Below, piece by piece: positions 2,053 through 63,765 of a stretch of 64,000 bases of DNA (positions are counted from its first letter, which is position 1; each line of letters begins with the position of its first letter). The translations under genes and the position numbers were made by a program. Below the pieces are notes generated by a model. The model saw only the letters and a program-made list of their open reading frames with translations, was not told where the DNA came from and did no database searches. The stretch is from a virus (taxonomy: Duplodnaviria > Caudoviricetes): positions 2,920-66,919 of the IMG/VR virus record IMGVR_UViG_3300021399_000158, one strand, 5' to 3'.

Positions 2053-3360
2053 ATGAATGAACTATACCATCACGGCGTCAAAGGAATGAAGTGGGGGGTT
2101 AGAAAAGATAGACAAACAGGTACTAGTAATTCAAAGAAAACCAGTCGACCAGAACTAACTCCGAAACAGAAAAGAATTGCTAGGAACGTTGCTATCGGTG
2201 CTGCCGTGGCTGCGGCTGCTGTTGGCGGTGTTGTTCTGTATTCGACAATCAAGGACAAGGATGTCCAAAAGCGTTATACAGAAACTGGGAGAAAAGCTGT
2301 AGAAAAAGCCATAAATGACAGAATAAATGTAGAAATAAATTCAGACATTAACATGTGGGCTTCGATAGATCCTGAACGTGCCGAAAGCATCAGAGCTAAT
2401 CGAGACGAGCTCTTAAAAGAACGTAGAAATAGCATTAACAAAAAAGTCTATGACACCGAAGTTAAACAGCTTGGAAAGAGCGCGTACGAAGCAGCTAAAA
2501 AGAATCGTGCGATAATAAATAAGAATCGCAAAATTCGAAAAGGCAGAGGAGATATTTTAGATTCCCCAATTCCTGCTCATATGATGTGGAAAGACCCTAG
2601 AAAACATTATAACGCCCCTTATGATATTTTACTGAAGCACATTGATGACGATGAAAACTATCTTGCGCATCATGGTGTCAAAGGCATGAAATGGGGCGTT
2701 CGAAAGGAAAGAGAACTGGTTGGGCGAAAAAGACGTTCTTCTACAAAAAGTACAAGAAAACGAAACGCAACAACAAGAGAAGGAGCAGGACTACTTAAAA
2801 AGAAACAATCTAAAAAAGAAGTGTTTCCTCCTTATGTAAACGAGCAGGTTGTAAGACAAATGAACCCAACGAACAATCAAATGAATTGTGCGTTTACATC
2901 TACTGGGTACGTCGTAAACAAAATCACTTCTAAAAACGTAACTGCTAATGCTTTTGAACCTGGAATGTTGGGTGATTTGACAGCGAATACTGGAACATCT
3001 CCCGATTTTTTTGAGAAAGCTTTGTCTAACACGACCCGTTCTAAATTCTCGGATGCTAAGTATTTTAGAGACCTTCCAACCATGACCGAAGCGACAAAAA
3101 ACATAAAAGATAATTCATATGGAATAATATTTGTTCAGCATCCTCTTGGTTGTGGTCATTATGTAAATTATGAAAAACGAAATGGTGTGACAACCATTAT
3201 TGATTGCCAAGGAACAGCTTTTACTGGAAAACAAGTAAATTCTCCAGATGCTTGGTCAAAAAAAGGAGTCAGAGCAATTGAGTACTGGGATTGTACAAAT
3301 GCCAGTATTTCTCCAGAAGGACAATCTAAATATTTGAATAAGATTTTAAGAGAATCATAA
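2053..3360 (+). CDS. Two-module HHGVKGMKWG-tagged protein with a C-terminal papain-fold (Tox-PL/glutamine deamidase-like) domain
   Basis: ATG 2053 follows GGGAG; tags NELYHHGVKGMKWGVRK and YLAHHGVKGMKWGVRK; C-terminal NC...GH(Y)VNY...IIDCQ gives a Cys-His-Asp triad pattern. Confidence 0.7.
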   Translation: MNELYHHGVKGMKWGVRKDRQTGTSNSKKTSRPELTPKQKRIARNVAIGAAVAAAAVGGVVLYSTIKDKDVQKRYTETGRKAVEKAINDRINVEINSDINMWASIDPERAESIRANRDELLKERRNSINKKVYDTEVKQLGKSAYEAAKKNRAIINKNRKIRKGRGDILDSPIPAHMMWKDPRKHYNAPYDILLKHIDDDENYLAHHGVKGMKWGVRKERELVGRKRRSSTKSTRKRNATTREGAGLLKKKQSKKEVFPPYVNEQVVRQMNPTNNQMNCAFTSTGYVVNKITSKNVTANAFEPGMLGDLTANTGTSPDFFEKALSNTTRSKFSDAKYFRDLPTMTEATKNIKDNSYGIIFVQHPLGCGHYVNYEKRNGVTTIIDCQGTAFTGKQVNSPDAWSKKGVRAIEYWDCTNASISPEGQSKYLNKILRES

Positions 3361-3372
3361 AGGAGCCTAATT

Positions 3373-3645
3373 ATGGATTTTGAATCTGCTTTAAATGAAA
3401 TTAGAAAAGAGCCATCGGTTAATACTGTATGGTTCGGCTTTCAAACAAATAGACGATTTATATTTGTCGTGTCTCCTAACTCCATGTTTATTCCTAGAGA
3501 TGCCGAATCGTTTATGATTGCTATTGATAGGAATACTGGAGAAAAACAGATATCTAAGTTTATTCAAATTCCAGAAGCTGAAAATGTATTTGAACATGCA
3601 AAATACGTCGACGCAACAGCTGAAGATTTTGCAGATATGATGTGA
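3373..3645 (+). CDS. Small acidic protein, candidate immunity/antitoxin for the upstream papain-fold domain
   Basis: 90 aa, AAGGAG RBS, directly downstream of the toxin-like domain, carries no tag; function inferred from position only. Confidence 0.4.
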   Translation: MDFESALNEIRKEPSVNTVWFGFQTNRRFIFVVSPNSMFIPRDAESFMIAIDRNTGEKQISKFIQIPEAENVFEHAKYVDATAEDFADMM

Positions 3646-3654
3646 GGATTGATA

Positions 3655-4212
3655 ATGAACAACGAACTTTACCATCATGGCGTCAAAGGAATGAGGTGGG
3701 GAGTAAGAAAGAAACGCCCAACTACAGGTCGTCATGTTCGAACAAGATCTGGTGAACAATTATATTTGCAGAAGCGTGAGACACCAACTTTTACAAAAGT
3801 ACTAGCCAAACATAATTCCAAGATACGAGACACCGTTAATCGAACAACGCAATATAACATCATGAAAGGTGATAAGCGAGTTGGCGATCTGGAATTATAT
3901 TCTGTGTCAAAAGACGAATTGAACGGCGTTTGGTTAGGTGTCAAAAATAATGAGCGTGGCCACGGATACGCGTCCGCTGTTTTAGAAGACACAATAAATT
4001 ATGCTAAACAGAATGGATATAAAAAAATGACTCTTGAAGTCCCAGGGCATTCTCCAGATGCTAGGCATATTTACGAAAAGCATGGCTTCGTTCCGACCAA
4101 GGTGCTTTCCACACAAGAAGATGATCCTGTTTGGAGTGGATTAACTGCTATGGAGTTGGATCTCACGCAAGTAAAGCACATCGATGACAACACATATAGA
4201 AAGTACAGGTGA
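3655..4212 (+). CDS. HHGVKGMRWG-tagged GNAT acetyltransferase
   Basis: NELYHHGVKGMRWGVRK, then GNAT motif A (GVKNNERGHGYASAVL) and LEV...ARHIYEKHGF. Confidence 0.8.
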   Translation: MNNELYHHGVKGMRWGVRKKRPTTGRHVRTRSGEQLYLQKRETPTFTKVLAKHNSKIRDTVNRTTQYNIMKGDKRVGDLELYSVSKDELNGVWLGVKNNERGHGYASAVLEDTINYAKQNGYKKMTLEVPGHSPDARHIYEKHGFVPTKVLSTQEDDPVWSGLTAMELDLTQVKHIDDNTYRKYR

Positions 4213-4217
4213 TTTTT

Positions 4218-4694
4218 ATGAGCAACGAACTATACCATCATGGTGTAAAAGGAATGAAATGGGGAGTTCGAAAAGATCGCAGAGCGTCCAACGAAAGTAA
4301 ACTTGCAAGAAACACCTCATATCGAAATAAATTAGCTAGAAGGGCCGAAATAAAGTCCAAGTTAAACACCAAAGCGTATAATCAAGCAAATTCGGAGTAC
4401 AACGATCTTGCAAAGAATGGGCTTAAGAGTAACGCGTGGAATGATGAAGTTAAAAGAAGATACGAAAGCGATCTCACGAAATACGGATTTAGCAGTTGGA
4501 CTCCTGCAATTAACTCTGCAATTAATTCGATTGATAAACATGCTATGAGAACGTACATGGTGGATGTTGATATGGAACGAGAAAGATACAAGGCTGCTGC
4601 GGACAGATGGATGAATTCTAATAAGAATCTTATGAATATGCCAATTTCTAGTACCACAAAGAAGAGGGATATTCGTAGAACTTATAGAGCATAG
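4218..4694 (+). CDS. HHGVKGMKWG-tagged basic helical protein of unknown function
   Basis: MSNELYHHGVKGMKWGVRKDR N-terminus. Confidence 0.75.
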   Translation: MSNELYHHGVKGMKWGVRKDRRASNESKLARNTSYRNKLARRAEIKSKLNTKAYNQANSEYNDLAKNGLKSNAWNDEVKRRYESDLTKYGFSSWTPAINSAINSIDKHAMRTYMVDVDMERERYKAAADRWMNSNKNLMNMPISSTTKKRDIRRTYRA

Positions 4695-8615: not shown

Positions 8616-9317
8616 ATGGCCAAACTTACATGGGATGAAAGCGGTAAGCGCCTCTATGAAACTGGTGTAAAGCAGGGTGTGCTGTATGTCCAGGATTCTA
8701 ATGGAACTTACCCCAAAGGCGTTGCTTGGAACGGACTGACAGGCGTTACAGAATCTCCTTCCGGCGCTGAAGCTAATGCACAGTATGCGGACGACATTAA
8801 GTATCTGAATCTGTATTCAGCTGAGGAATTTGGAGCAACTGTTGAAGCGTTTACATATCCGGACGAGTGGGCTGAATGCGACGGATCCGCTGAAATTGCT
8901 AAAGGTGTTTACATGGGCCAGCAGGGAAGAAAGTCATTCGGTCTGTGCTACAGAACCGCAGTTGGTAATGACATTGACGGCTCTGACCACGGATACAAGC
9001 TTCATCTTATTTATGGAGCGATGGCTTCTCCTTCTGAGAAGGCATATTCCACAATTAATGACTCACCGGAACCGATTACATTCAGCTGGGAAATCAATAC
9101 AACACCGGTTAATGTTCCGGGATTCAAGCCGACCGCTCTGGTTACAGTAGACTCCACTAAGTTTACAACAGAAGACCAGAAGGCAAAACTGGCTGCTCTC
9201 GAAGAAAAGCTTTATGGCTCTGAAAACAAGGAAGCATTTCTGCCTCTTCCGGCGGAAGTATTTAAGACTCTTGGAGCAGAAACCACTGGCGACGAGGGCG
9301 ACGATCTTAACCCGTAA
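8616..9317 (+). CDS. Major tail (tube) protein
   Basis: MAKLTWDESGKRLYETGV...GVAWNGLT...YADDIKY...KLHLIYG pattern typical of siphovirus tail tube proteins. Confidence 0.85.
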   Translation: MAKLTWDESGKRLYETGVKQGVLYVQDSNGTYPKGVAWNGLTGVTESPSGAEANAQYADDIKYLNLYSAEEFGATVEAFTYPDEWAECDGSAEIAKGVYMGQQGRKSFGLCYRTAVGNDIDGSDHGYKLHLIYGAMASPSEKAYSTINDSPEPITFSWEINTTPVNVPGFKPTALVTVDSTKFTTEDQKAKLAALEEKLYGSENKEAFLPLPAEVFKTLGAETTGDEGDDLNP

Positions 9318-25298: not shown

Positions 25299-25625
25299 AT
25301 GGAGAAGTTTACATTTGATTTAACAGAAGAGCAGATCACATATTTGCAGAGACTTGGAAACGAAGTCGACACTAAAGTTTTTCTCATCGATAGAATGATG
25401 GCAAATCATGCAACTGATACAGATCTCAGTCTGTTTGAATCCAAGCCTTTTAAACATTTCATGAGCGAGTATGAGAAATCTTATGCTATGTGGGAAATGG
25501 CTAAAAGCGAATTCGAGAAAACTGTGGTTAATCCGATCGTGGCCGAGAAGTATGGTCCGAATGCGTTATATTCGTGGATGATCAACGACTTCGAAGAAGG
25601 TACATGCGAGGTGACGATTCAGTGA
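25299..25625 (+). CDS. CXXX-repeat modification system accessory protein (putative)
   Basis: 108 aa between target and rSAM; LTEEQ N-terminus and WMINDFEEGTCEV end resemble, from memory, the small CXXX-system associated family; not searched. Confidence 0.5.
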   Translation: MEKFTFDLTEEQITYLQRLGNEVDTKVFLIDRMMANHATDTDLSLFESKPFKHFMSEYEKSYAMWEMAKSEFEKTVVNPIVAEKYGPNALYSWMINDFEEGTCEVTIQ

Positions 25626-26941
25626 AGCGCAGCAAGAAAAGTTCTGAGCAGTATCAGGACATGGTAGCGCGTTTATATCCCGAATTAAAAGGAAAAGACA
25701 ACTTCCCATGTATGGAAATCACATTCCAGGTCACTGACGCTTGTTCTCTTGCCTGCACATACTGTTATCAGATCGATAAGGGGCATAAGGTTATGCCTTT
25801 CGAGACAGCAAAGACCTTTATCGACAATCTCTTCGATGGTTTTTACAAAGGTTACGTTTCCGAAGAGGAGAAACCTTTCCTCGTTCTCGATTTCATTGGC
25901 GGTGAACCATTTCTTCAGCCTAAGTTGATCGAACAGATCTGCGACTATTTCTTTGATACGGCGATTGAACGCATGTCGCCGTGGGCAGAGCGTACAATGA
26001 TATCTGTATGCTCAAACGGAGTGGCATGGTTCGATCCTGACGTCCAGCATTTTGTTAACAAATACCGCGAACGGTTGTCTATATCGGTAACGATTGACGG
26101 CAACAAGGAACTTCACGACTCCTGCAGGATATTTCCTGATGGTAGACCCAGCTATGATCTGGCTGTAGCAGCGGCTAAAGACTGGATGGATCGTGGCGGG
26201 GAGATGGGCAGCAAGATTACTATCTGTCCTGAAAACCTTCGATATATGAACGACGCCATCCTTCATATGATCGAACTCGGTTACGACGAGATCAACGCGA
26301 ATGTCGTTTATGAAGAAGGATGGACGATCGAGCACGCTAAGGAATACTACCAGAAACTCAAGGAGATTGCCAATCACTTCATTGACAACGATTTGGTCAG
26401 TGATATTTACCTTTCGTTGTTCACAGAGATTTTGGGGTATCCAAAACCAGAGGATGATGACAAAACCTGGTGCGGTGGAGTAGGGAACGCCATGCTCTCT
26501 ATCGATCCGGATGGTAAGTTCTTCCCTTGTATTCGCTACATGCATTCCTCACTTGGCGACGACCAGCCGCCTCTGTCGATCGGAGATGTATGGACAGGTA
26601 TCGGCAAGAATGAGGAAGACGCAGCATGGATCAAATGCCTCGGATGTATCACAAGACGATCAGAGAGTACGGACGAGTGCTTCTATTGCCCGATCGCAGA
26701 AGGGTGCTCCGAATGCTCCGCATACAACTACCAGGTCAATGGCACACCTGATTCGCGATGCACATTCATTTGCGACATGCACAAAGCCAGAGTCATGGCT
26801 AACTCATATTTCTGGAACAAGTGGTATCGCAAGACCTGTCAGGACAAGCGATTCGCGCTGCATATTCCGGATGACTGGGCTTTGGAAATTATTGATGAGA
26901 AAGAACTTGAGATGCTTAAAGAATTATCTAAGGAGAATTAA
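25622..26941 (+). CDS. Radical SAM/SPASM peptide maturase
   Basis: CxxxCxxC (CSLACTYC), FIGGEP, and SPASM Cys set WCGG...FPC...CFYC...CSEC...C; GTG start overlapping previous TGA. Confidence 0.92.
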   Translation: MKRSKKSSEQYQDMVARLYPELKGKDNFPCMEITFQVTDACSLACTYCYQIDKGHKVMPFETAKTFIDNLFDGFYKGYVSEEEKPFLVLDFIGGEPFLQPKLIEQICDYFFDTAIERMSPWAERTMISVCSNGVAWFDPDVQHFVNKYRERLSISVTIDGNKELHDSCRIFPDGRPSYDLAVAAAKDWMDRGGEMGSKITICPENLRYMNDAILHMIELGYDEINANVVYEEGWTIEHAKEYYQKLKEIANHFIDNDLVSDIYLSLFTEILGYPKPEDDDKTWCGGVGNAMLSIDPDGKFFPCIRYMHSSLGDDQPPLSIGDVWTGIGKNEEDAAWIKCLGCITRRSESTDECFYCPIAEGCSECSAYNYQVNGTPDSRCTFICDMHKARVMANSYFWNKWYRKTCQDKRFALHIPDDWALEIIDEKELEMLKELSKEN

Positions 26942-33939: not shown

Positions 33940-34258
33940 CGACCTCAAGGAATGGTGTTTGCGCTACCAAGAATGGAAGGATATTTGCGAGAACTTAAAG
34001 TTAAGTAAAGGAATAGGTAGAGTCGGGACAACTCAGGAGTGGCATGATTATACATACGACTCTGCCTATATTCGTGAGCACTTAGCATGGCGGGTGGAGG
34101 TTATTGAAGACTGCTGCGATCGTACGGACGTAGCTAAGGCTAGTGATATTTTGCTGGCTGTTACTGAGGACATACCTCCTGCGATGTTGGGAGTGTCAGA
34201 TGAGATGTACGGAAGATTCTTTGATGTGCTTAAGGAAGAACTATGGAATTATATTTGA
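33923..34258 (+). CDS. Putative transcriptional regulator (RinA/ArpU-like)
   Basis: LKEWCLRYQEW...ILLAVTE...YGRFF pattern; weak family recall. Confidence 0.35.
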   Translation: MSTRIDDLKEWCLRYQEWKDICENLKLSKGIGRVGTTQEWHDYTYDSAYIREHLAWRVEVIEDCCDRTDVAKASDILLAVTEDIPPAMLGVSDEMYGRFFDVLKEELWNYI

Positions 34259-34932
34259 AACACTATGGCGTTAAAGGCATGAAGTGGGGCGTTAGGCATG
34301 ACAAGCGCCCAACTGGAAAAAGACGTCCGCGTAAAAACCCAAATGATATTCGTCTTAAAAAAGGCCATAAGATTTATAGAATAGCAAATGCTGGCGAGAC
34401 TCTCGATTCAAAGAGAAAATATGTAACTATAAGCGGCAAAGATAGTCTTGTATACACTGGCGAATTGCTTGGGGGCCTTCCGTATGATCCACGTAAGGAA
34501 GTCGGGCAATATACTTATGAATCGATGAAAGATATTACCATTAAAAATGGTAAAGATATTGTGCTCGATTTGATGGATAAGTACGGAGGCCAAACATTAA
34601 GAAAAGATTTAGATATTGAACTTGAAGTACGTAACAAATTCAAAGATTCAGACGAACGACGTAGTTTTAGAGATGAATGGTTTACTTTTGACGATGACGA
34701 TATTGTGGATCTTGGAATGCAATATGAAAGCTCGCATGACAAACTAAAAGACTTTGTTTGGGACGTAGTAGAGAAGAACGAGGATACGATTCTTAAGGAC
34801 TACAAAAGACAGGGCTATGATGCGATTATAGACCCATACGATTACATAGCCGATATCGCTGACCAGCCAGTGATTATATTAGATCCTAAATCATCGTTAA
34901 AGAAGAAAGACTATTACAAGATATGGACTTGA
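34243..34932 (+). CDS. HYGVKGMKWG-tagged protein with ADP-ribosyltransferase-like domain
   Basis: LYLKHYGVKGMKWGVRH tag; KIYR...YVT...GYDAIID...PVIILD pattern. Confidence 0.5.
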   Translation: MELYLKHYGVKGMKWGVRHDKRPTGKRRPRKNPNDIRLKKGHKIYRIANAGETLDSKRKYVTISGKDSLVYTGELLGGLPYDPRKEVGQYTYESMKDITIKNGKDIVLDLMDKYGGQTLRKDLDIELEVRNKFKDSDERRSFRDEWFTFDDDDIVDLGMQYESSHDKLKDFVWDVVEKNEDTILKDYKRQGYDAIIDPYDYIADIADQPVIILDPKSSLKKKDYYKIWT

Positions 34933-34988: not shown

Positions 34989-35013
34989 TCGTAAGTATTA
35001 CACCCCTTATAGT
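34989..35013 (+). promoter_or_regulatory. TCGTAA-N13-TATAGT promoter motif 1
   Basis: One of 10 copies with identical 13-nt spacing. Confidence 0.8.
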
Positions 35014-35028
35014 AGGAGGTATAAGAAA

Positions 35029-35301
35029 ATGAAAAGACAAGATTTTATTAACAAATGCGACGAAGTTCAAAAGTATTGGGGCAATAAAATGCCGATGATG
35101 CTTATGGAAGAATCAGGAGAATTAATTCAGGCTATATCGAAGTATGAGCGCGATAAGAACGCAAATACTAGACAAAACCTGATTGATGAAATCGGAGACA
35201 TGTACATAAGTTTGATGGCAATACAGCTTCAATACGAAACTGATATTTCGCCCGAAGAAGTTGAAAAAAGGATTGAAAAGAAACTAAACAAGAAATACTA
35301 A
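35029..35301 (+). CDS. MazG-like nucleotide pyrophosphohydrolase
   Basis: EExxEL (MEESGELIQAISK) and EIGD (IDEIGDMY) motifs; start at ATG 35029 after AGGAGG. Confidence 0.8.
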   Translation: MKRQDFINKCDEVQKYWGNKMPMMLMEESGELIQAISKYERDKNANTRQNLIDEIGDMYISLMAIQLQYETDISPEEVEKRIEKKLNKKY

Positions 35302-35312
35302 CTAAAAAGTAG

Positions 35313-35338
35313 GCACTCAAACGAGTGCTTTCTTTTTT
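35313..35338 (+). terminator. Intrinsic terminator
   Basis: GCACTC-AAAC-GAGTGC plus T tract. Confidence 0.75.
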
Positions 35339-35339
35339 C

Positions 35340-35364
35340 TCGTAACTATTACAACTCCTATTAT
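35340..35364 (+). promoter_or_regulatory. TCGTAA-N13-TATTAT promoter motif 2
   Basis: Abuts upstream terminator. Confidence 0.8.
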
Positions 35365-35400
35365 AGCAAGATATTACCATATTTGGAAAGGAGAGGTACT

Positions 35401-35562
35401 ATGCTGCAGACCATTATACTATTAGCCATAGGCATTGGATTTATGGAGTTTTGTGTTTGGTATAGCGAGTATGAGGAACAACGAGAAGAATATGTAAAAT
35501 TGAGGCTAGAATTAGAAAAAATGAAGGAGTTGGATGAGTTTAGATACAAATACTTTATGTAG
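35401..35562 (+). CDS. 53-aa membrane-anchored protein (absent from ORF track)
   Basis: AAAGGAGAGG RBS; N-terminal TM followed by charged helix. Confidence 0.65.
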   Translation: MLQTIILLAIGIGFMEFCVWYSEYEEQREEYVKLRLELEKMKELDEFRYKYFM

Positions 35563-35568
35563 AGTATC

Positions 35569-35593
35569 GGGGCTTTACAGCCCCTTTATTTTT
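35569..35593 (+). terminator. Intrinsic terminator
   Basis: GGGGCT-TTAC-AGCCCC plus T tract. Confidence 0.75.
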
Positions 35594-35596
35594 GCC

Positions 35597-35621
35597 TCGT
35601 AAAAATTACAACCCCTATAAC
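35597..35621 (+). promoter_or_regulatory. TCGTAA-N13-TATAAC promoter motif 3
   Basis: Followed by a gene-less structured segment. Confidence 0.8.
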
Positions 35622-35709
35622 GAAAGGAAGTGGTGTAACGCGAATGTAGTTGCTTAAGTGCAACCGCCGTTGTAGGACTTCGTCGGTCCCTACAACCCTT
35701 TTATTTTTT
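35622..35709 (+). ncRNA. Small RNA candidate (two hairpins, tRNA-like traits)
   Basis: Between promoter motifs 3 and 4; GTTGC/GCAAC and GTTGTAGG/CCTACAAC stems, then T tract; no credible ORF. Confidence 0.55.
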
Positions 35710-35710
35710 C

Positions 35711-35735
35711 TCGTAAAAAATACACCTCCTATAAT
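35711..35735 (+). promoter_or_regulatory. TCGTAA-N13-TATAAT promoter motif 4
   Basis: Motif match. Confidence 0.8.
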
Positions 35736-35772
35736 GAAACGGAACCAAGTATATTTTACAAGGAGGAACATT

Positions 35773-36051
35773 ATGAATAAATTCAATATTACACCGAAAG
35801 ACATAGTTAAAGCTGGAACATGCATTACAGTTGGAGCTGGAACAAGAACGCTAGTAAGAACAATAGCAACATCTATGATTCCGCCGGAATTGAGTATGAC
35901 AACAAATTTACTCTGCCGGATAGGAGTCAAAGGAGTATCTAATCTTGCTGGCGGGGCAGCAGTAAAAGCGACAAGAGAAACATGGGACAGTGTCGAATTG
36001 TTAGTCGATATTTCTAAAAGAATGATTCACGATGCACAAATGGAGGACTAG
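35773..36051 (+). CDS. Hypothetical protein, hydrophobic Gly-rich
   Basis: AAGGAGG RBS; start reassigned to ATG 35773. Confidence 0.65.
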   Translation: MNKFNITPKDIVKAGTCITVGAGTRTLVRTIATSMIPPELSMTTNLLCRIGVKGVSNLAGGAAVKATRETWDSVELLVDISKRMIHDAQMED

Positions 36052-36071
36052 TTCCGTTTCACTATAGAAGG

Positions 36072-36101
36072 CAGGTTGCAAACGCAGCCTGTTTTCTTTT
36101 T
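36072..36101 (+). terminator. Intrinsic terminator
   Basis: CAGGTTGC-AAAC-GCAGCCTG plus T tract. Confidence 0.75.
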
Positions 36102-36104
36102 GCC

Positions 36105-36129
36105 TCGTAAAAATTGCAAACGCTATTAT
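36105..36129 (+). promoter_or_regulatory. TCGTAA-N13-TATTAT promoter motif 5
   Basis: Motif match. Confidence 0.8.
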
Positions 36130-36163
36130 AGCAAGGAACTCATATTTTATAAGGAGGCAAATT

Positions 36164-36505
36164 ATGAGAAAGAATAGAACACATTTAAAGGTTAAAGTTA
36201 TCGAAGGAACCCTGGCAGTTGGAGTTTTCACAGGATCGGTATGCGTAGGAATCCTTATGCAAAGCCGCGTTTCATCGTTAAAGATGGCGCCTTTCTTAAA
36301 GGATATTCTTGGCAGAGCTTGTATCGCTGGAGGAATCGAACTGGGGTTAGATTTGGCAGGCAAGGCAGTTGAATGGTTCAGAGAAACAGACATATATTTG
36401 AATGCGAAAAGAGAAGAGGAGTTCTTTGCGAAGGCGGAAGCGAATGGTTGGACATTAGTCAAGTGTAATTACACTGTAGAAGATTGGGAAAAAGCAGTGG
36501 CATAA
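36164..36505 (+). CDS. Hypothetical protein, possibly membrane-associated
   Basis: AAGGAGG RBS; hydrophobic segments. Confidence 0.65.
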   Translation: MRKNRTHLKVKVIEGTLAVGVFTGSVCVGILMQSRVSSLKMAPFLKDILGRACIAGGIELGLDLAGKAVEWFRETDIYLNAKREEEFFAKAEANGWTLVKCNYTVEDWEKAVA

Positions 36506-36520
36506 CACTCAAGACTAATA

Positions 36521-36545
36521 GGAAGCTACAAGCTTCCTCCTTTTT
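36521..36545 (+). terminator. Intrinsic terminator
   Basis: GGAAGCT-ACA-AGCTTCC plus T tract. Confidence 0.7.
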
Positions 36546-36569
36546 GCCTAGATTCGGAGGAGAAAACAC

Positions 36570-36764
36570 ATGATACTTACAATCGCAATTATTGCAATTT
36601 CTTTTACTTTTGGCGGGTTAAGCCATCATCTATATTTGAGAATCAGACCGCATGGGTTTATTGATGTCGAGAACAATCAGCTTAAAAAACTCGAGATCAA
36701 CATCCCATTCGACGAGATTACGAAAAAGCGTTCGTTATCTATCAAAGTTCGCTCTCGTAAATAA
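36570..36764 (+). CDS. Small membrane-anchored hypothetical protein
   Basis: GGGAGG RBS; N-terminal TM. Confidence 0.6.
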   Translation: MILTIAIIAISFTFGGLSHHLYLRIRPHGFIDVENNQLKKLEINIPFDEITKKRSLSIKVRSRK

Positions 36765-36779
36765 TACAAGCCCTATAGT
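36755..36779 (+). promoter_or_regulatory. TCGTAA-N13-TATAGT promoter motif 6
   Basis: Overlaps stop of previous gene. Confidence 0.8.
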
Positions 36780-36812
36780 AGAACTAAATTCTCTAAACGA
36801 AAGGAGATTGAC

Positions 36813-37214
36813 ATGGAAGAGAAAACATTAAGAGATAAGTTAGAGGAGATATTAGATGAGAAGCTTGAAAAACTCAGCTTAATGGAAGAAGGATCCCAAG
36901 AGCATTCGCGCTTGGCAGAGGATATTCAAAAACTGTATAACCAGTGGTTGCAGGAGGTCAAGCTCGATAGCGATTGCTATTATCAGCAGCTTAAGATCGA
37001 AAACGAGAAAGCTCGTAACGAAGCTGAAGCAGCTAATAGAGCGAAAGAAATCGAGAACGAGTCCAAAAAGCACCGCCGGATTAGATGGGACACTATCCTC
37101 ACATGCTCGGTTGTTGTAGGGTTAACTATAGGATGCTGTGTATTCGAAGCAAACGGACATATTTTCCCAACTAAACTATTGAAGTATGCTGACAAGTTAA
37201 GATTTATTGCATAG
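36813..37214 (+). CDS. Coiled-coil protein with C-terminal TM anchor
   Basis: AAAGGAG RBS; EE-rich helix, then hydrophobic C-terminus. Confidence 0.65.
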   Translation: MEEKTLRDKLEEILDEKLEKLSLMEEGSQEHSRLAEDIQKLYNQWLQEVKLDSDCYYQQLKIENEKARNEAEAANRAKEIENESKKHRRIRWDTILTCSVVVGLTIGCCVFEANGHIFPTKLLKYADKLRFIA

Positions 37215-37230
37215 AGATAAGTTCTATAAA

Positions 37231-37263
37231 GGAGGCGGCGCAAGCTGCTTCCTTTATATTTTT
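37231..37263 (+). terminator. Intrinsic terminator
   Basis: GGAGGCGGC-GCAA-GCTGCTTCC plus T-rich tail. Confidence 0.7.
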
Positions 37264-37266
37264 GCC

Positions 37267-37614
37267 ATGAGATACCATTACGAAAAACCAAGAGAATACA
37301 AAGTTACAAAGGCTAGAGTTTACAATTGCGATCACCCGCTATATTCTAAATGCACGTTGTTCGAATTTGAAGGGCGAGGACTGTCCGTCGTTCAAAGGCG
37401 ATACAACGCCAACAGCAAGGTTTGGTGGTGGTCAACTATCGATCCATGGCTGATAGATGATATTTTCCAGCATGAAGGTTTTAGTGAATTCTTTGACAAG
37501 TACGCTGGAAATTGTAAGGACGGTCTTTACCCGACAGTCACAGTACGCAAACTTATGTGGGCGCTTCGTATGCGACCATTGAAGAAAGAGTATTGGGAAA
37601 AAGATATTTTCTGA
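37267..37614 (+). CDS. Hypothetical protein
   Basis: MRYHYEKP...CDHPLYSKCTLF; weak RBS. Confidence 0.55.
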   Translation: MRYHYEKPREYKVTKARVYNCDHPLYSKCTLFEFEGRGLSVVQRRYNANSKVWWWSTIDPWLIDDIFQHEGFSEFFDKYAGNCKDGLYPTVTVRKLMWALRMRPLKKEYWEKDIF

Positions 37615-37616
37615 TC

Positions 37617-37641
37617 TCGTAAAAATTACAACTCCTATAAT
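37617..37641 (+). promoter_or_regulatory. TCGTAA-N13-TATAAT promoter motif 7
   Basis: Motif match. Confidence 0.8.
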
Positions 37642-37708
37642 GACAAGGAAGCGGTTAAGCCAACTTGTCGTTTATTTTTTCCAAGGGTTTCTAAAAGGAG
37701 GAACAATT

Positions 37709-48895: not shown

Positions 48896-48920
48896 TCGTA
48901 AAAATTACAACCCTTATAGT
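48896..48920 (+). promoter_or_regulatory. TCGTAA-N13-TATAGT promoter motif 8
   Basis: Followed by tRNA-like RNA. Confidence 0.8.
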
Positions 48921-48921
48921 A

Positions 48922-49011
48922 GGAAGGCACATAGCTTAAGACGCCAATAACGATGGAAAATAAAGCGCCGCAATTGAGCGGAGATGCGTAACGAACCCGC
49001 TGTGCAATTCC
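48922..49011 (+). ncRNA. tRNA-like small RNA (non-canonical)
   Basis: GGAA/TTCC and GCACA/TGTGC terminal pairing, TAGCTTAA D-arm-like start, CCGC/GCGG stem, degenerate T-arm GCG...CGAACCCGC; no 3' CCA. Confidence 0.5.
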
Positions 49012-49050
49012 TATATTTTTTCGCTTGGTGTTTTAGAAAGGAGCAAGTAC

Positions 49051-49293
49051 ATGAAACACTACATTGTTAATGGTTTGGCTATTGTAGGAGGAGGCTTCAT
49101 AGTCACTAAAGCAACTGGATATTTTCTAAAGAGATACAGAAAGCAGATCAAAGCTTCTGTAATCGACAAGGTTGCGAACTTCTTCTCAGAAGACGAAGAC
49201 CAGCCTGATGAGGAAGTCGAAGATAAGAAAGACGACCCTCTTGTAGCAGCTTTTGCTGCATATTTGAACGCTAAGAAAGGAGCAAAGAAATGA
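49051..49293 (+). CDS. Membrane-anchored hypothetical protein
   Basis: GAAAGGAG RBS; N-terminal TM, acidic middle. Confidence 0.6.
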   Translation: MKHYIVNGLAIVGGGFIVTKATGYFLKRYRKQIKASVIDKVANFFSEDEDQPDEEVEDKKDDPLVAAFAAYLNAKKGAKK

Positions 49294-50057
49294 ATTTAGC
49301 ACCGATAAAGATGTTTCTGTCATCCAACTCATCATCCATATTAGTTGGGATTGGAATCGCTGGTGTTGTCGCTACTGCTGTTTCATCTGGCAAAGCTGCT
49401 GTTAAGGCAAGCCATATTTTAGAGGAACTTGAGTACATGTCTGATGAACCGCCAACAACAAAAGAAAAAGTTAAAGCAGTAGCGCCTACATTTGTTACGC
49501 CGGTCATATTTGGTGCAACAACAATTGCGTGTTTTTGTGGAGCGCATTCAATTGATTTGAGAAAACAGGCGACAGCAGCTCTTGTAGCGGCAACGAGTAA
49601 ACGCACTGCCGAAGAAACGGAGGCTAAAGTTGAAGAGTTATTTGGTGGAAAGAAAGCCAAAGCGGTTAAGGACGAAATCGCGAAGGACGAAGTCAAAGAG
49701 AAGCCGCCTAAAAAAGATGATATTTGGCATACTGGAAACGGTTCAATTGTTATGCGAGATGGTGTTATGGGCGGACCAGATTTCGAAACGGACCTTGAAG
49801 TCTTAAAGTCGGTGTTCAATCAACTTAATAACAGACTCAACCAGTATGAAAATGTAACTGTAAATGATTTGAAGTACGCCTTAGGATTGCCTCAAATCGA
49901 ACTGGGTGAGGATTTAGGCTGGGTAGGAGGCGAACAGCTGGATCCATATTGGACTGTGGTTGATTTGGAAAAGGACCTCATGATCACGACAACTGACGAC
50001 TTCCGTGAAATCTATGTTCTGAAGTACAATCTTCCGGCATATTTGCCGAATTCGTAA
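49290..50057 (+). CDS. DUF6353-like protein (paralog 1)
   Basis: SSILVGIGIAGVVATAV...KA TM, then NVTVNDLKYALGL...GW. Confidence 0.6.
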   Translation: MNLAPIKMFLSSNSSSILVGIGIAGVVATAVSSGKAAVKASHILEELEYMSDEPPTTKEKVKAVAPTFVTPVIFGATTIACFCGAHSIDLRKQATAALVAATSKRTAEETEAKVEELFGGKKAKAVKDEIAKDEVKEKPPKKDDIWHTGNGSIVMRDGVMGGPDFETDLEVLKSVFNQLNNRLNQYENVTVNDLKYALGLPQIELGEDLGWVGGEQLDPYWTVVDLEKDLMITTTDDFREIYVLKYNLPAYLPNS

Positions 50058-50076
50058 TAATTACAACCCCTATAGT
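50052..50076 (+). promoter_or_regulatory. TCGTAA-N13-TATAGT promoter motif 9
   Basis: Overlaps stop of previous gene. Confidence 0.8.
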
Positions 50077-50121
50077 AGCAAGCAAACACTATTGATTATA
50101 TTTGAAAAAGGAGGCATTATC

Positions 50122-59915: not shown

Positions 59916-59940
59916 TCGTAAGAATTACAGATGCTATTAT
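59916..59940 (+). promoter_or_regulatory. TCGTAA-N13-TATTAT promoter motif 10
   Basis: Upstream of VRR-NUC, exonuclease and RNAP genes. Confidence 0.75.
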
Positions 59941-60000
59941 AGGAAGGAAGGGCGAAGATACCGTTTTTGCTCTTCTTTTTCTTTTTGGAAAGGAGCATTC

Positions 60001-60291
60001 ATGGCTGAGAATAAATTTCAGGCAGATTTGATTAAGGAACTTAAACAAAGATTCCCAGGATGCATAGTGCTTAAGAATGATCCTAATTATATTCAGGGGA
60101 TCCCAGACTTGTTAATTCTTTATAACAATAAATGGGGAGCTCTCGAGTGTAAAGATAGCGCAAGTTCTAAGAAGAGACCTAACCAAGAATGGTATGTGGA
60201 ACATATGAACAAGATGTCTTTCTCAAGATTTATATTTCCGCAAAACAAAGAGGAGGTGCTTAATGAACTTCAACGAGCATTCGGGGCTTGA
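60001..60291 (+). CDS. VRR-NUC family nuclease (putative Holliday junction resolvase)
   Basis: E..FQ...GIPDLLIL...ALECK...RPNQEW. Confidence 0.8.
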   Translation: MAENKFQADLIKELKQRFPGCIVLKNDPNYIQGIPDLLILYNNKWGALECKDSASSKKRPNQEWYVEHMNKMSFSRFIFPQNKEEVLNELQRAFGA

Positions 60292-60817
60292 AGGTTTACA
60301 TGCATTTCTAAGTCCAAGCAAATACCATTGGATTAATTACGATGAGGCTAAATTGGCTGAAGCGTATGAAAAGTATCAAGCAATACAAAGAGGCACAATA
60401 TTGCACGATTTTGCTAGAAGATGCATCGTCTTAAGACAAAGGTTACCAAAGTCTAAGAAGACTTTGAACATGTACGTTAACGACGCAATAGGTTATGGTA
60501 TGACACCAGAACAACCGTTATATTTTTCGGAGAATTGTTTTGGAACTGCAGATGCTATTTCGTTTAAGCGCGACTTTCTAAGAATTCATGATTTGAAAAC
60601 CGGCATCACAAAGGCCTCTTTTCATCAATTAGAAGTGTATACTTCTATATTTTGTTTGGAGTATGGAATCAACCCGAAAGATATAGGAATCGAGCTTCGT
60701 ATCTATCAAATGGACGAAGTGCTTTGTTATGAACCAATTGCTGATGATATTTTGGCGATTAGTGACAAAATAATTGCATTTGATAAACAAATAGAGAAGA
60801 TTAAAGGAGCCGAATAA
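60263..60817 (+). CDS. PD-(D/E)XK / Cas4-like exonuclease
   Basis: HAFLSPS...RGTILH...FGTADAI...IHDLKTG...QLEVY. Confidence 0.7.
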   Translation: MNFNEHSGLEGLHAFLSPSKYHWINYDEAKLAEAYEKYQAIQRGTILHDFARRCIVLRQRLPKSKKTLNMYVNDAIGYGMTPEQPLYFSENCFGTADAISFKRDFLRIHDLKTGITKASFHQLEVYTSIFCLEYGINPKDIGIELRIYQMDEVLCYEPIADDILAISDKIIAFDKQIEKIKGAE

Positions 60818-63504
60818 TGTACAATGATGAGCTGTTGCATTATGGTACGAAACGCCATTCTGGGAGATACGAATGGGGGTCTGGTTTAAACCCTTACCAG
60901 CATGAAAGTTGGTTTCTTGCAGAAAAAGATAGGTTAAAAGCTCAGGGTTTAAGCGATACGGAGATTGCCACCGAACTTGGAATGAGTTCTAATGAGTTTA
61001 GAACTCGCAGAACAATAGAAAATAACGCCAAAAAAGCTGCTGACGCAACAAACGCTTTGAAACTAAGAGACAAGGGATATTCCAATGTTGAAATAGGAAA
61101 GATGCTTGGCATTTCAGAAGGAACGGTTAGAAAGTATTTAAACCCAGCTTTTGAAATGAGAAAAAATAAAACTCAACAATTAGCAGATGTTTTAAAGGAA
61201 CAGGTTGAGTCAAAAACATATCTTGATGTTGGAAAAGGCGTTGAAAGACAGCTTGGCGTGTCAAGACAGCAGATGAAACCAGCACTTAAGCTGTTAGAAG
61301 ATCAAGGGTATAAAGTTAGTTATGTGAAAGTTGAACAAGCTACGAACCCAGGAAAGTATACTTCAGTTCAGGTTCTTACTAAAGACAACTTGGATTACTC
61401 AGATATTTATAAACACAGAGGCGAAATCATGTCTCCTCATGGCGTGTGGTTTGAAGATTATGGAACTACAAAAAGAGGTTTGAAACCTCCTGTGAGTATA
61501 GATTCTGACAGAGTAGCTATTAGATATGCAGAAGATGGCGGCAAGGCGAAAGATGGGTTAATAGAACTTAGAAGAGGCGTTAGTGATTTATCTATGGGGT
61601 ATAACACATACGCACAAGTTCGTATTGCCGTCGACGGAACGCATTATCTTAAGGGCATGGCAGTGTATAGTGACGATCTTCCGCCTGGTGTTGACATTAT
61701 GTTCAACACTAATAAAACTAAGGACAAAAGTAAGATGGAAGTCCTTAAGAAGATGGATCCTGACCCGAACAACCCGTTCGGTTCAACGATTAGCAGACAA
61801 CCAACATATTTGGACAAGCTCGGAAAAGAGCATCAATCAGCAATCAATATTGTAAACGAATCAGAAGACTGGGAGAAATGGTCAAAGACTCTTTCCTCCC
61901 AGTTTCTTTCTAAACAGAACACAACTTTAGCCAAGAGACAATTAGATTTAGCGTATAAAGAAAAGCAACAAGAGTTCGACGATATTTGTTCTCTTAATAA
62001 CCCTGCTGTTAAACAAAGATTGTTAGAGTCATTCGCTGATGACTGCGACTCGGCTGCTGTGCAGTTAAAAGCAGCTCCGTTGCCAGGGCAAAAGACACAT
62101 GTTATTCTTCCGTTAACAAAGATTAAGGACAATGAAATTTACGCTCCTAACTATAAAACAGGGGAAGAAGTAATCCTTGTTAGGCATCCGCATCAAGGAA
62201 TATTTGAGATCCCAAGACTTACTGTTAACAATAGAAACAAACAGGGGCGAGAGCTACTTGGTAATGCCGAGAATGCAGTTGGTATTTCAGCGACTGTAGC
62301 TGAGCAACTGTCAGGCGCTGACTTCGATGGCGATACTGTTCTTGTAATACCCACAAAGAACCATCCTTTGAAAACATCTAAACCATTAAAAGGATTAGAT
62401 GGGTTTGATCCGAAAGAATACTACAGAGCTTATGAAGGCATGCCTAAGACAGGCCCCGAAACAGGGTTTCATAAGCAAAATGAAATGGGTAGCATAAGTA
62501 ATCTTATCACCGACATGACAATTAAGGGTGCTACAGAAGCTGAACTCGTTAGAGCTACAAAGCATTCATTAACTGTAATCGATGCTGAGAAACATAATCT
62601 TGACTGGCGAAGATCAGAACAAGAAAACGGTATTAAGCAACTAAAAGCTAAGTACCAAGGTGGAGCAAATAGAGGCGCTTCAACATTAATTTCTAAAGCA
62701 AGTTCTGAAATGCGAGTACCTCAAAGGAAAGACTTTGTAATGTCAAAGTCTTCAATAGACCCAATTACAGGGGCTAAAATCTTTGAGGAAACAGGAGCAA
62801 CATGGACCGATAAGAAAGGCAAAACACAACTACGAACAGACAAATCAACTAAGATGTATGAGAATCTTATTGAAGGAAAAGATGCATCTGAGTTGTCCTC
62901 AGGTTCTGCAATGGAAAAGGTCTATGCTGACCACGCTAATAAGATGTATGCCTTGGGCAATAAGGCTAGAAAAGAATGGCTAGCCACCCCAAACTTAGAG
63001 TATAGTCCCAGTGCTTATAAGACTTACAAACCAGAAGTTGATTCACTAAATTCTAAGCTAAACATAGCATTAAAGAACGCCCCCAATGAGAGGAAAGCAC
63101 AGCTGGTGGCCGACGTTGTTTATAAGGAGCTGAAAGAGAGCAACCCCTCTATGTTCAAGGATAAGAAGGAGGCCCAGAAGATAAAGGCTCAGATCATTAT
63201 AGATACAAGGAACAGAGCGGGGACTACATCAAGGGCCGAAAGAAACATATCTATAACGGATAGGGAGTGGGAGGCTATACAAGCGGGGGCTATCCACCAC
63301 TCTAAACTAAGACAGATACTGGCCCATACAGATCTTGACGAGATTAGAGAAAGAGCAACGCCAAGAGAAAACAAGAACAGAAAAGTTAGTGCTTCTACAT
63401 TATCAAGAGCGAGAGCAATGCTTGCAATGGGTTACACACAAGCTGATGTGGCTAAAGCATGTGGCGTATCGATTTCAACACTTAAGAACAATGGAGTTCT
63501 ATAA
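60817..63504 (+). CDS. YonO/RdRP-like single-chain two-barrel RNA polymerase with HTH domains and N-terminal LLHYG tag
   Basis: VRIAVDGTHYLKG, VRHPHQG (RxP), LSGADFDGDTV (DxDGD), GSISNLIT; HTHs LSDTEIATELGM, YSNVEIGKMLGISEGTVRKYL, YTQADVAKACGVSISTL. Confidence 0.82.
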   Translation: MYNDELLHYGTKRHSGRYEWGSGLNPYQHESWFLAEKDRLKAQGLSDTEIATELGMSSNEFRTRRTIENNAKKAADATNALKLRDKGYSNVEIGKMLGISEGTVRKYLNPAFEMRKNKTQQLADVLKEQVESKTYLDVGKGVERQLGVSRQQMKPALKLLEDQGYKVSYVKVEQATNPGKYTSVQVLTKDNLDYSDIYKHRGEIMSPHGVWFEDYGTTKRGLKPPVSIDSDRVAIRYAEDGGKAKDGLIELRRGVSDLSMGYNTYAQVRIAVDGTHYLKGMAVYSDDLPPGVDIMFNTNKTKDKSKMEVLKKMDPDPNNPFGSTISRQPTYLDKLGKEHQSAINIVNESEDWEKWSKTLSSQFLSKQNTTLAKRQLDLAYKEKQQEFDDICSLNNPAVKQRLLESFADDCDSAAVQLKAAPLPGQKTHVILPLTKIKDNEIYAPNYKTGEEVILVRHPHQGIFEIPRLTVNNRNKQGRELLGNAENAVGISATVAEQLSGADFDGDTVLVIPTKNHPLKTSKPLKGLDGFDPKEYYRAYEGMPKTGPETGFHKQNEMGSISNLITDMTIKGATEAELVRATKHSLTVIDAEKHNLDWRRSEQENGIKQLKAKYQGGANRGASTLISKASSEMRVPQRKDFVMSKSSIDPITGAKIFEETGATWTDKKGKTQLRTDKSTKMYENLIEGKDASELSSGSAMEKVYADHANKMYALGNKARKEWLATPNLEYSPSAYKTYKPEVDSLNSKLNIALKNAPNERKAQLVADVVYKELKESNPSMFKDKKEAQKIKAQIIIDTRNRAGTTSRAERNISITDREWEAIQAGAIHHSKLRQILAHTDLDEIRERATPRENKNRKVSASTLSRARAMLAMGYTQADVAKACGVSISTLKNNGVL

Positions 63505-63525: not shown

Positions 63526-63765
63526 ATGAGACAAGTTGCATTAACAACTATTGACAACCCATATGATCCGATAGATCAGTTCGATGATTGGTATGCTTTC
63601 GATCTTAGTAAAGGATACAATTGTTGTGAGTATGTTGGTTCTTTAGCATTAACCTCTTCAGAGCTTAGCTATCTTGATCAATCGATTGCTGTTGAAAGAG
63701 CTGTTGATCAAATAGTTAAACTAAATGTTTTAGGAATCTTTAAGAAAGTTGTTAAAGAAATCTAA
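63526..63765 (+). CDS. Conserved-looking phage hypothetical protein
   Basis: AAAGGAGG RBS; ALTTIDNPYDPIDQFDDWYAFD...GY.CC.Y. Confidence 0.65.
   Translation: MRQVALTTIDNPYDPIDQFDDWYAFDLSKGYNCCEYVGSLALTSSELSYLDQSIAVERAVDQIVKLNVLGIFKKVVKEI

Follow-up and report, generated by a model that had tools for sequence, protein, structure and literature searches.

The polymerase gene

The DNA analysed here (the window, 64,000 nucleotides) comprises positions 2920–66919 of the 66,919-bp IMG/VR virus record IMGVR_UViG_3300021399_000158, which CheckV rates as complete, and the gene considered is the one at 60817–63504, the last but one before the right cos end. The open reading frame (ORF), which an earlier note on this DNA had pointed out, is real: it encodes a protein of 895 amino acids (100.2 kDa, pI 9.2), an AAAGGAG ribosome-binding site lies 7 nt 5′ of its start, and that start and the stop of the exonuclease gene before it overlap. 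The protein is, with very little doubt on our part, a single-chain DNA-dependent RNA polymerase (RNAP), presumably catalytic, of the two-barrel superfamily, and belongs to the family of phage 1706 ORF75 (PHROG 4291). Its parts are as follows, with residues numbered along the protein; HTH stands for helix-turn-helix.

60817..63504, + strand: polymerase gene, stop codon included (ORF and translation)
60910..61014, + strand: first, weak HTH, residues about 32–66 (weak matches to RepB at 37–69 and HTH_23 at 39–58; model helices 32–42, 47–53 and 58–85)
61054..61143, + strand: second HTH, sigma region 4-like, residues 80–109 (HTH_23, E 8e-11; Sigma70_r4_2, E 3.8e-10)
61165..61428, + strand: winged-helix-like domain, residues 117–204 (VIA-align Z 6.6–7.7 to extended winged-helix and wHTH domains)
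61477..63228, + strand: predicted two-barrel catalytic core, residues about 221–804 (VIA-align, Foldseek and invariant residues)
61618–61659, + strand: R269 and K279-G280, invariant in 48 homologs
62179–62193, + strand: R456-x-P458, invariant in 48 homologs
62314–62334, + strand: GADFDGD, invariant in 48 homologs
63382..63486, + strand: C-terminal HTH, residues 856–890 (HTH_3, E 3.4e-9; HTH_7, E 4.1e-7)

Predicted catalytic core and DNA-binding modules

The 48 homologs, which are 56–83% identical to the polymerase, all retain R269, K279-G280, R456-x-P458 and the DFDGD at 502–506, in the contexts V-R269-IAVDGTHYL-K279-G280, R456-H-P458 and G-A-D502-F-D-G-D506. Judged by sequence, the residues that characterize the superfamily (D502/D504/D506, R456/P458 and R269/K279) thus appear to be all in place, and the catalytic core at 221–804 would consist of the DFDGD loop, as the metal-binding site, plus the R-x-P and R...KG residues.

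An AlphaFold model derived from the 48-sequence alignment (mean predicted local distance difference test score, pLDDT, 80; predicted template modelling score, pTM, 0.68) was compared with known structures. Foldseek placed QDE-1 at the top (E 8e-9), followed by P32 gp64 and P74 gp62 of Thermus phages (about 3e-5), plant RDR2 and P23-45 gp96, with a weak match to the crAss-like gp66 (E 0.06). With residues 221–804 of the model, VIA-align gave Z-scores of 16.5 for QDE-1 (400 residues, root-mean-square deviation 6.8), 15.9 for P74 gp62 and 15.5 for the maize enzyme ZmRDR2; the largest subunits of multisubunit RNAPs aligned with Z about 10 on residues 417–622, the barrel that carries DFDGD, and double-psi beta-barrel domains matched the model at residues 417–523/622, as predicted for an enzyme within the two-barrel superfamily, which has two such domains joined by a helical core. 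On the strength of these Foldseek and VIA-align matches, the predicted structure strongly supports a two-barrel (double-psi beta-barrel) polymerase as the core. A sequence search of the PDB with the polymerase returned only chance matches to HTHs, and the Pfam profile for RNA-dependent RNA polymerase (RdRP; PF05183) scored below threshold on it (E 0.0044), with weak RdRP matches in 22 of the 48 homologs.

The DNA-binding modules, too, are kept. HTH_23 and Sigma70_r4_2 each match all 48 homologs, and HTH_3 and HTH_7 each match 47 of them; the matches of residues 117–204 to winged-helix domains, made with the predicted structure, are weak and at the level of a common fold. Residues 1–29 are predicted to be disordered (pLDDT below 50). 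The R...KG, RxP and DFDGD motifs, the RdRP-like two-barrel fold and the two N-terminal and one C-terminal HTHs, all of which the earlier note had read from the sequence, have therefore stood up: the motifs by their invariance, the fold by the comparison with QDE-1, and the HTHs because those at 80–109 and 856–890 are significant and a weaker one lies at 37–69.

Relationship to known polymerases

The polymerase matches phrog_4291 (‘RNA-dependent RNA polymerase’) with 1176.7 bits, residues 3–891 aligning with positions 9–903 of the 909 in the profile. By tblastn, a homolog was found in 250 phage records, in 249 of them at 36–52% identity over 99% of the length; these include phages of Arthrobacter, Gordonia, Streptomyces, Rhodococcus, Microbacterium and Curtobacterium, the Lactococcus phages 1706 and P078, and Faecalibacterium phages, and in all of the records the gene lies near the right end. 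A wider homolog search gave at least 8000 candidates, all with E ≤ 1e-10. Megablast of the gene against the phage records gave no match.

The family has been described before. In Ruprich-Robert & Thuriaux (2010; PMC2919709), one of the five families of YonO-like proteins is a ‘1706 family’, and Koert et al. (2021; bioRxiv 10.1101/842583) found a protein of the form HTH–RdRP–HTH with DxDGD, which they named ‘HTH domain-containing / putative RNA polymerase’, to be a signature gene of an actinophage supercluster together with 1706 and Faecalibacterium phages; the latter paper is silent on promoters, transcription and virions. The idea of an RdRP-like polymerase that has an HTH region at either end is thus already in print, and the present polymerase is a new member of a published family. 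With that family it shares the full-length profile match, the HTHs at both ends, the DxDGD, R-x-P and R...KG motifs, an N-terminal HYGT.R.SGRY.WGSG peptide and a location that follows an endonuclease and an exonuclease, with a single further gene before the right cos end. It differs from the cultured members in its identity to them of 36–52%, in coming from a metagenomic record, and in the upstream box of its promoter-like sites, which is TCGTAA here and TCGCA/TCGCG or CACATG in the relatives.

The description ‘YonO-like’, used in the earlier note, is apt for the motifs and the superfamily but not for the sequence or profile, since hhalign gave a probability of 0.2% and BLASTP an E above 2, the only high-scoring segment pair being a nonsignificant one over the R-x-P-H...D-x-D-G-D segment. 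SPbeta YonO is likewise single-chain and of much the same length (839 amino acids), with R-x-P-H and then D-x-D-G-D at nearly equal spacing; however, no HTH modules are reported for it, and it is the late-gene enzyme of a temperate phage with an undefined promoter (PMC5467207). QDE-1 of Neurospora and plant RDR2, two-barrel polymerases of cells that work in an RNA-dependent and a DNA-dependent manner, are the best structural matches, over some 400 core residues and with their catalytic motifs in an identical order, but are only 11–14% identical, serve in eukaryotic RNA silencing and are found without HTH modules or a phage context. The Thermus phage enzymes, including P74 gp62 (Z 15.9), are single-chain two-barrel RNAPs with conserved promoters of their own, P23-45 gp64 and its homologs P74 gp62 and P32 gp64 being non-virion enzymes and P23-45 gp96 a virion RNAP fused to the tape measure (PMC10770324). 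They differ in having no fused HTH, in a virion enzyme that sits inside the tape measure protein rather than being free and tagged, and in an identity of 13–18%. The virion RNAP of N4 is a T7-type enzyme of 3500 amino acids and phi14:2 gp66, from a crAss-like phage, a two-barrel enzyme of 2180 amino acids. With these two the polymerase would share a life-cycle logic, that of a packaged enzyme firing early promoters; its size is between a quarter and two-fifths of theirs, and the fold of the N4 enzyme is different.

Genomic context

All genes are on the + strand, in the order terminase, portal, protease–capsid, tape measure, tail genes, early region and replication module, and the last of these comprises a 1267-amino-acid polymerase–primase, an annealing protein, a helicase, an HNH endonuclease, a second endonuclease, a Cas4-type exonuclease, the polymerase and a gene for 79 amino acids. 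The immediate neighbours of the polymerase gene are:

60001–60291, + strand: endonuclease, co-operonic with the polymerase
60263–60817, + strand: Cas4-type exonuclease, co-operonic with the polymerase (matches to phrog_93 / phrog_3953 cover the endonuclease and exonuclease pair)
63526..63765, + strand: conserved 79-amino-acid gene after the polymerase, the last before the genome end (phrog_4303, E 6.6e-27)

The order endonuclease–exonuclease–polymerase recurs in the related genomes L100 and L102 and in phages 1706 and ReqiPoco6, and the 79-amino-acid gene follows the polymerase in L100, L102 and ReqiPoco6; the placement of the polymerase gene, behind the two nucleases and near the right genome end, is that of the family. 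The operon runs on across the cos end into the head genes, and ReqiPoco6 has a 3′ cos overhang at the corresponding genome end. Among the tail genes, a radical SAM protein (25574–26941; phrog_1802, E 1e-60) adjoins an ORF of 464 amino acids.

A tripartite promoter-like motif

The earlier note had proposed a class of TCGTAA promoters, and ten TCGTAA-N13-TATWRT sites were indeed found. Of 27 TCGTAA sites on the + strand, these ten, all intergenic, share about 34 nt with the consensus TCGTAA.aAtTACAac.ccTATa.TAG.A.G.aa:

34989..37650, + strand: seven tripartite promoter-like sites with the shared consensus, in the early region (34989, 35340, 35597, 35711, 36105, 36755 and 37617)
48896..50085, + strand: two tripartite promoter-like sites with the shared consensus (48896 and 50052), ahead of replication genes
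59916..59949, + strand: tripartite promoter-like site, one of the ten copies, 5′ of the endonuclease–exonuclease–polymerase operon

Several of the sites lie directly 3′ of hairpin and T-run terminators, and the one at 59916 is kept at the same position in L100 (TCGTAA) and L102 (TAGTAA). The form found in the window, TCGTAA-aaATTACAAc-cCTATAGTAG, is one version of a form common to the lineage, TCG(C/T)R-N4-TTACA-N5-TATAAT, in which conservation extends through the spacer and beyond the TATAAT-like element, while the position of a sigma-A −35 box is variable. A reading of TTACA or TCGTAA as a sigma-A −35 box was rejected, because their spacings of 5 and 13 nt, respectively, do not fit sigma-70 promoters. 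Sites of the sigma-70 type were not enriched over shuffled sequences, and no sigma region 2 was found in the six frames of the genome.

The exact form TCGTAA-N13-TAnnnT is absent from 1706 and was not enriched in relatives whose polymerases are ≤57% identical (8 forward against 4 reverse), and it was replaced in the searches by the shared core and then by the tripartite form; naive k-mer counts were dominated by other abundant words. Related versions were found in phages whose hosts belong to two phyla, Actinomycetota and Bacillota:

1706: CACATG-tt-TTTACA-taca-CTATAGTAGAAAG, at least 12 copies
G002: TCGCA-N4-TTACA-N4-CTATAATAG, 14 copies
G001 (taken as Arthrobacter phage Mudcat): CGCG-taaATTACA-N4-GCTATAAT, at least 7 copies
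G003: related tripartite form, 5 copies
G004: related tripartite form, 5 copies
G005: weaker tripartite form, 3 copies

For a scan of the viral collection the 14-base core alone was too unspecific, giving mostly single matches. The strict tripartite pattern gave at least 104 matches in the collection, against about a dozen that we estimate would be expected by chance, and most of them lie in contigs of 50–64 kb. All 30 motif-bearing viral records of ≥50 kb encode the polymerase, as do all 28 of those that are ≥90% complete, so that motif and polymerase are strongly associated. The association is no proof of which enzyme reads the site, because relatives share features by descent. A literature search found nothing on the promoters of the actinophage relatives.

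The second motif of the earlier note, the 13-mer TTCAAAATGGGAG proposed as a late signal, is also present, in five exact copies in the window (263, 2034, 5979, 7960 and 9914), and it is kept exactly in the head modules of L100 (15656 and 20472) and L102 (15222), the polymerases of which are only 69–75% identical to that of the window. Most copies overlap ribosome-binding sites or start codons and one is intragenic, for which reason TTCAAAATGGGAG may act on RNA or translation rather than as a promoter. It is the weaker promoter candidate, and the TCGTAA class is better supported as the promoter of the polymerase.

Leader hairpin and other noncoding elements

Directly after the promoter-like site at 59916 comes a further element, detected by a terminator scan and RNA folding:

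59942..59986, + strand: hairpin and T-run, terminator-like, in the leader of the operon (counterparts at 9104–9150 in L100 and 9122–9168 in L102)

In three relatives with different sequences the hairpin folds with −19, −20.7 and −17.2 kcal/mol (z −3.4 to −6.5). By analogy, its appearance is that of a promoter-proximal terminator or attenuator; a hairpin and U-run right after a promoter is also the arrangement of lambda PR′–tR′. Elsewhere, some 100 nt devoid of any ORF come after the site at 35597, a hairpin and T-run then abuts the site at 35711, and the stretch 35597–35710 is possibly a small noncoding RNA unit. GATATTT / ATTATATTT words head the coding-strand 10-mer counts in G004 and G002, with up to 51 near-copies, which parallels the excess of ATATTT mentioned for the window in the earlier note.

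The N-terminal peptide and tagged head proteins

Residues 5–23 of the polymerase, ELLHYGTKRHSGRYEWGSG, resemble the N-terminal NELYHHGVKGMKWGVRK of the proteins encoded by the ORFs that start at 2053, 3655, 4218 and 34243:

60829..60885, + strand: N-terminal tag-like peptide of the polymerase, residues 5–23 (invariant residues; hhalign P 0.003)
2053..4694, + strand: DUF7211-tagged head-module genes at 2053–3360 (two copies), 3655–4212 (GNAT) and 4218–4694 (Pfam E 2e-10 to 2e-23), with an untagged gene at 3373–3645 inside the span
34243..34932, + strand: 229-amino-acid protein with an N-terminal DUF7211 tag (Pfam E 1.4e-9)

The NELYHHGVKGMKWGVRK motif is Pfam DUF7211 (PF23847), for which a literature search found nothing. 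Seven copies in the genome exceed the curated cut-off of 27 bits, at 42–50 bits and on six head-module proteins, two of which are encoded beyond the window, on the left side of the terminase gene. The protein encoded at 2053 has one N-terminal and one internal copy and a hydrophobic segment. Every complete relative examined has between one and seven canonical tags, carried by head-module proteins. Enzyme-like domains are also found on tagged proteins: that of 3655–4212 has a GNAT acetyltransferase domain (E 1.5e-8), and that of 2053–3360 a weak C-terminal similarity to papain-fold glutamine deamidases (E 0.13). In L100 the DNA of the tag is near-identical over about 50 nt among paralogous head-module genes (14152–14206, 20503–20557 and 21173–21227, also 17779 and 18228), which suggests gene conversion or recent duplication.

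The peptide of the polymerases follows the pattern L.HYGT.R.SGRY.WGSG, related to the DUF7211 tag and distinct from it; H8, G10, S15-G16-R17, G21 and G23 are invariant in the 48 homologs, and all 40 instances of this variant are on polymerases, in ORFs of 822–1005 amino acids. In phage 1706, orf75 (the polymerase) and orf7 are the only tagged proteins and both are labelled ‘structural protein’ in GenBank. Eleven of the 76 ORFs of 1706 bear this label, and the probability that both tagged ones would do so by chance is 0.019; the label is a GenBank annotation only, and the ReqiPoco6 record merely cites it.

Which enzyme reads the motif, and when

We propose that the HTH and winged-helix modules fused to either end of the polymerase recognize TCG(C/T)R-N4-TTACA-N5-TATAAT, and that the enzyme would need no sigma factor to start transcribing early and middle genes, which we regard as somewhat more credible than its opposite. 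In the second part of the proposal, the polymerase would be synthesized late and packaged into the capsid, the disordered peptide at its N-terminus, which is a variant DUF7211 tag, being involved in loading, and would enter the cell with the DNA, whereupon the early promoters could fire before any phage protein is made; belief in this second part is for us at, or a shade under, the point of balance with doubt. The support for packaging and injection is indirect: it comes from the ‘structural protein’ label of the two tagged 1706 proteins and from the disorder and tag-like sequence of the N-terminus. If the polymerase is the reader, a pre-made enzyme is needed, since its own gene lies behind a promoter of this type (59916), and late synthesis together with the head proteins is plausible because the operon continues across the cos end into the head genes. 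We consider the explanation as a whole, an injected polymerase acting at its own promoters, to be evenly poised. The fullest version, in which a tag-loaded, injected two-barrel RNAP of 100 kDa, working without sigma at a tripartite promoter read by its own HTHs, is the smallest self-sufficient virion RNAP, is a tentative one, possible but with doubt prevailing.

A number of observations weigh against this proposal. The co-occurrence of motif and polymerase may only reflect common descent, and the TATAAT-like element leaves room for the host sigma-A RNAP acting with a phage factor. The 33-kb structural arm contains no tripartite promoter, so that a further mechanism is needed for late transcription. 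The start ELLHYG, which the earlier note had matched to a cargo tag, does resemble it, but at an hhalign P of only 0.003 and with a 4-residue insertion relative to the DUF7211 profile; it is a polymerase-specific variant, and the N-terminus gives no match to Pfam DUF7211 even at E 10. In 1706, orf62 and orf71, outside the structural module, are also labelled ‘structural protein’, and virions could simply carry a basic DNA-binding protein along during purification. Apart from the GenBank label for 1706, a literature search turned up nothing biochemical or proteomic on the 1706 ORF75 family.

It seems unlikely, although it is the best of the alternatives, that the polymerase acts outside the virion in the manner of YonO, the host RNAP reading the tripartite promoters with the TATAAT-like element as −10 and the polymerase then transcribing the structural arm, perhaps through TTCAAAATGGGAG. 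YonO does transcribe the late genes of SPbeta (PMC5467207), and the absence of tripartite promoters from the structural arm, together with the five copies of TTCAAAATGGGAG and its exact conservation in L100 and L102, would fit such a division of labour. However, the tripartite motif has no −35 element at sigma-70 spacing, its spacer is conserved, and it is kept in phages of both Actinomycetota and Bacillota hosts; the 1706 homolog carries a virion-protein label in GenBank; and TTCAAAATGGGAG lies mostly on ribosome-binding sites or start codons and in one case within a gene.

Less likely again is that another phage factor redirects the host RNAP, as MotA and AsiA of T4 do at middle promoters, and that the polymerase primes replication or carries out RNA-templated synthesis as QDE-1 and RDR2 do. 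The box 13 nt 5′ of TAnnnT recalls T4 middle promoters, the polymerase gene adjoins those of the DNA polymerase–primase, helicase and nucleases, and the closest structural relatives include RNA-dependent enzymes. On the other hand, no sigma domain was found in the genome, the 1267-amino-acid replicase already has a primase-type domain, and early promoters that need a phage factor would again call for an injected protein; moreover, it is the HTH-polymerase that has been singled out as the conserved signature gene of the whole lineage (Koert et al., bioRxiv 10.1101/842583). Finally, a mere DNA-binding regulator with a catalytically dead polymerase-like core, which would agree with the ‘helix-turn-helix DNA-binding domain protein’ of most GenBank records and the subthreshold Pfam RdRP match, is very improbable, given that the metal-binding and substrate-contact residues are all invariant in the 48 homologs and that the 580-residue core is kept at 45–55% identity across host phyla.

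Implications

For the ancestor of the cellular RNA polymerases, single-chain two-barrel RNAPs provide models. To our knowledge, few have been studied, namely QDE-1, YonO, crAss gp66 and gp64 and gp96 of P23-45. The family considered here is very large (at least 8000 candidates), includes members cultured in easy hosts and comes with DNA-binding modules of its own. Should the polymerase prove able to initiate unaided at a defined promoter some 30 bp long, it would reveal how promoters are recognized by a minimal two-barrel enzyme and could become a compact orthogonal transcription tool, and should a short peptide package it, the tag would offer a general means of loading siphovirus heads with proteins. 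Were the whole of the proposal to hold, the smallest self-sufficient virion RNAP would lie in a phage lineage that spans hosts in both the Actinomycetota and the Bacillota.

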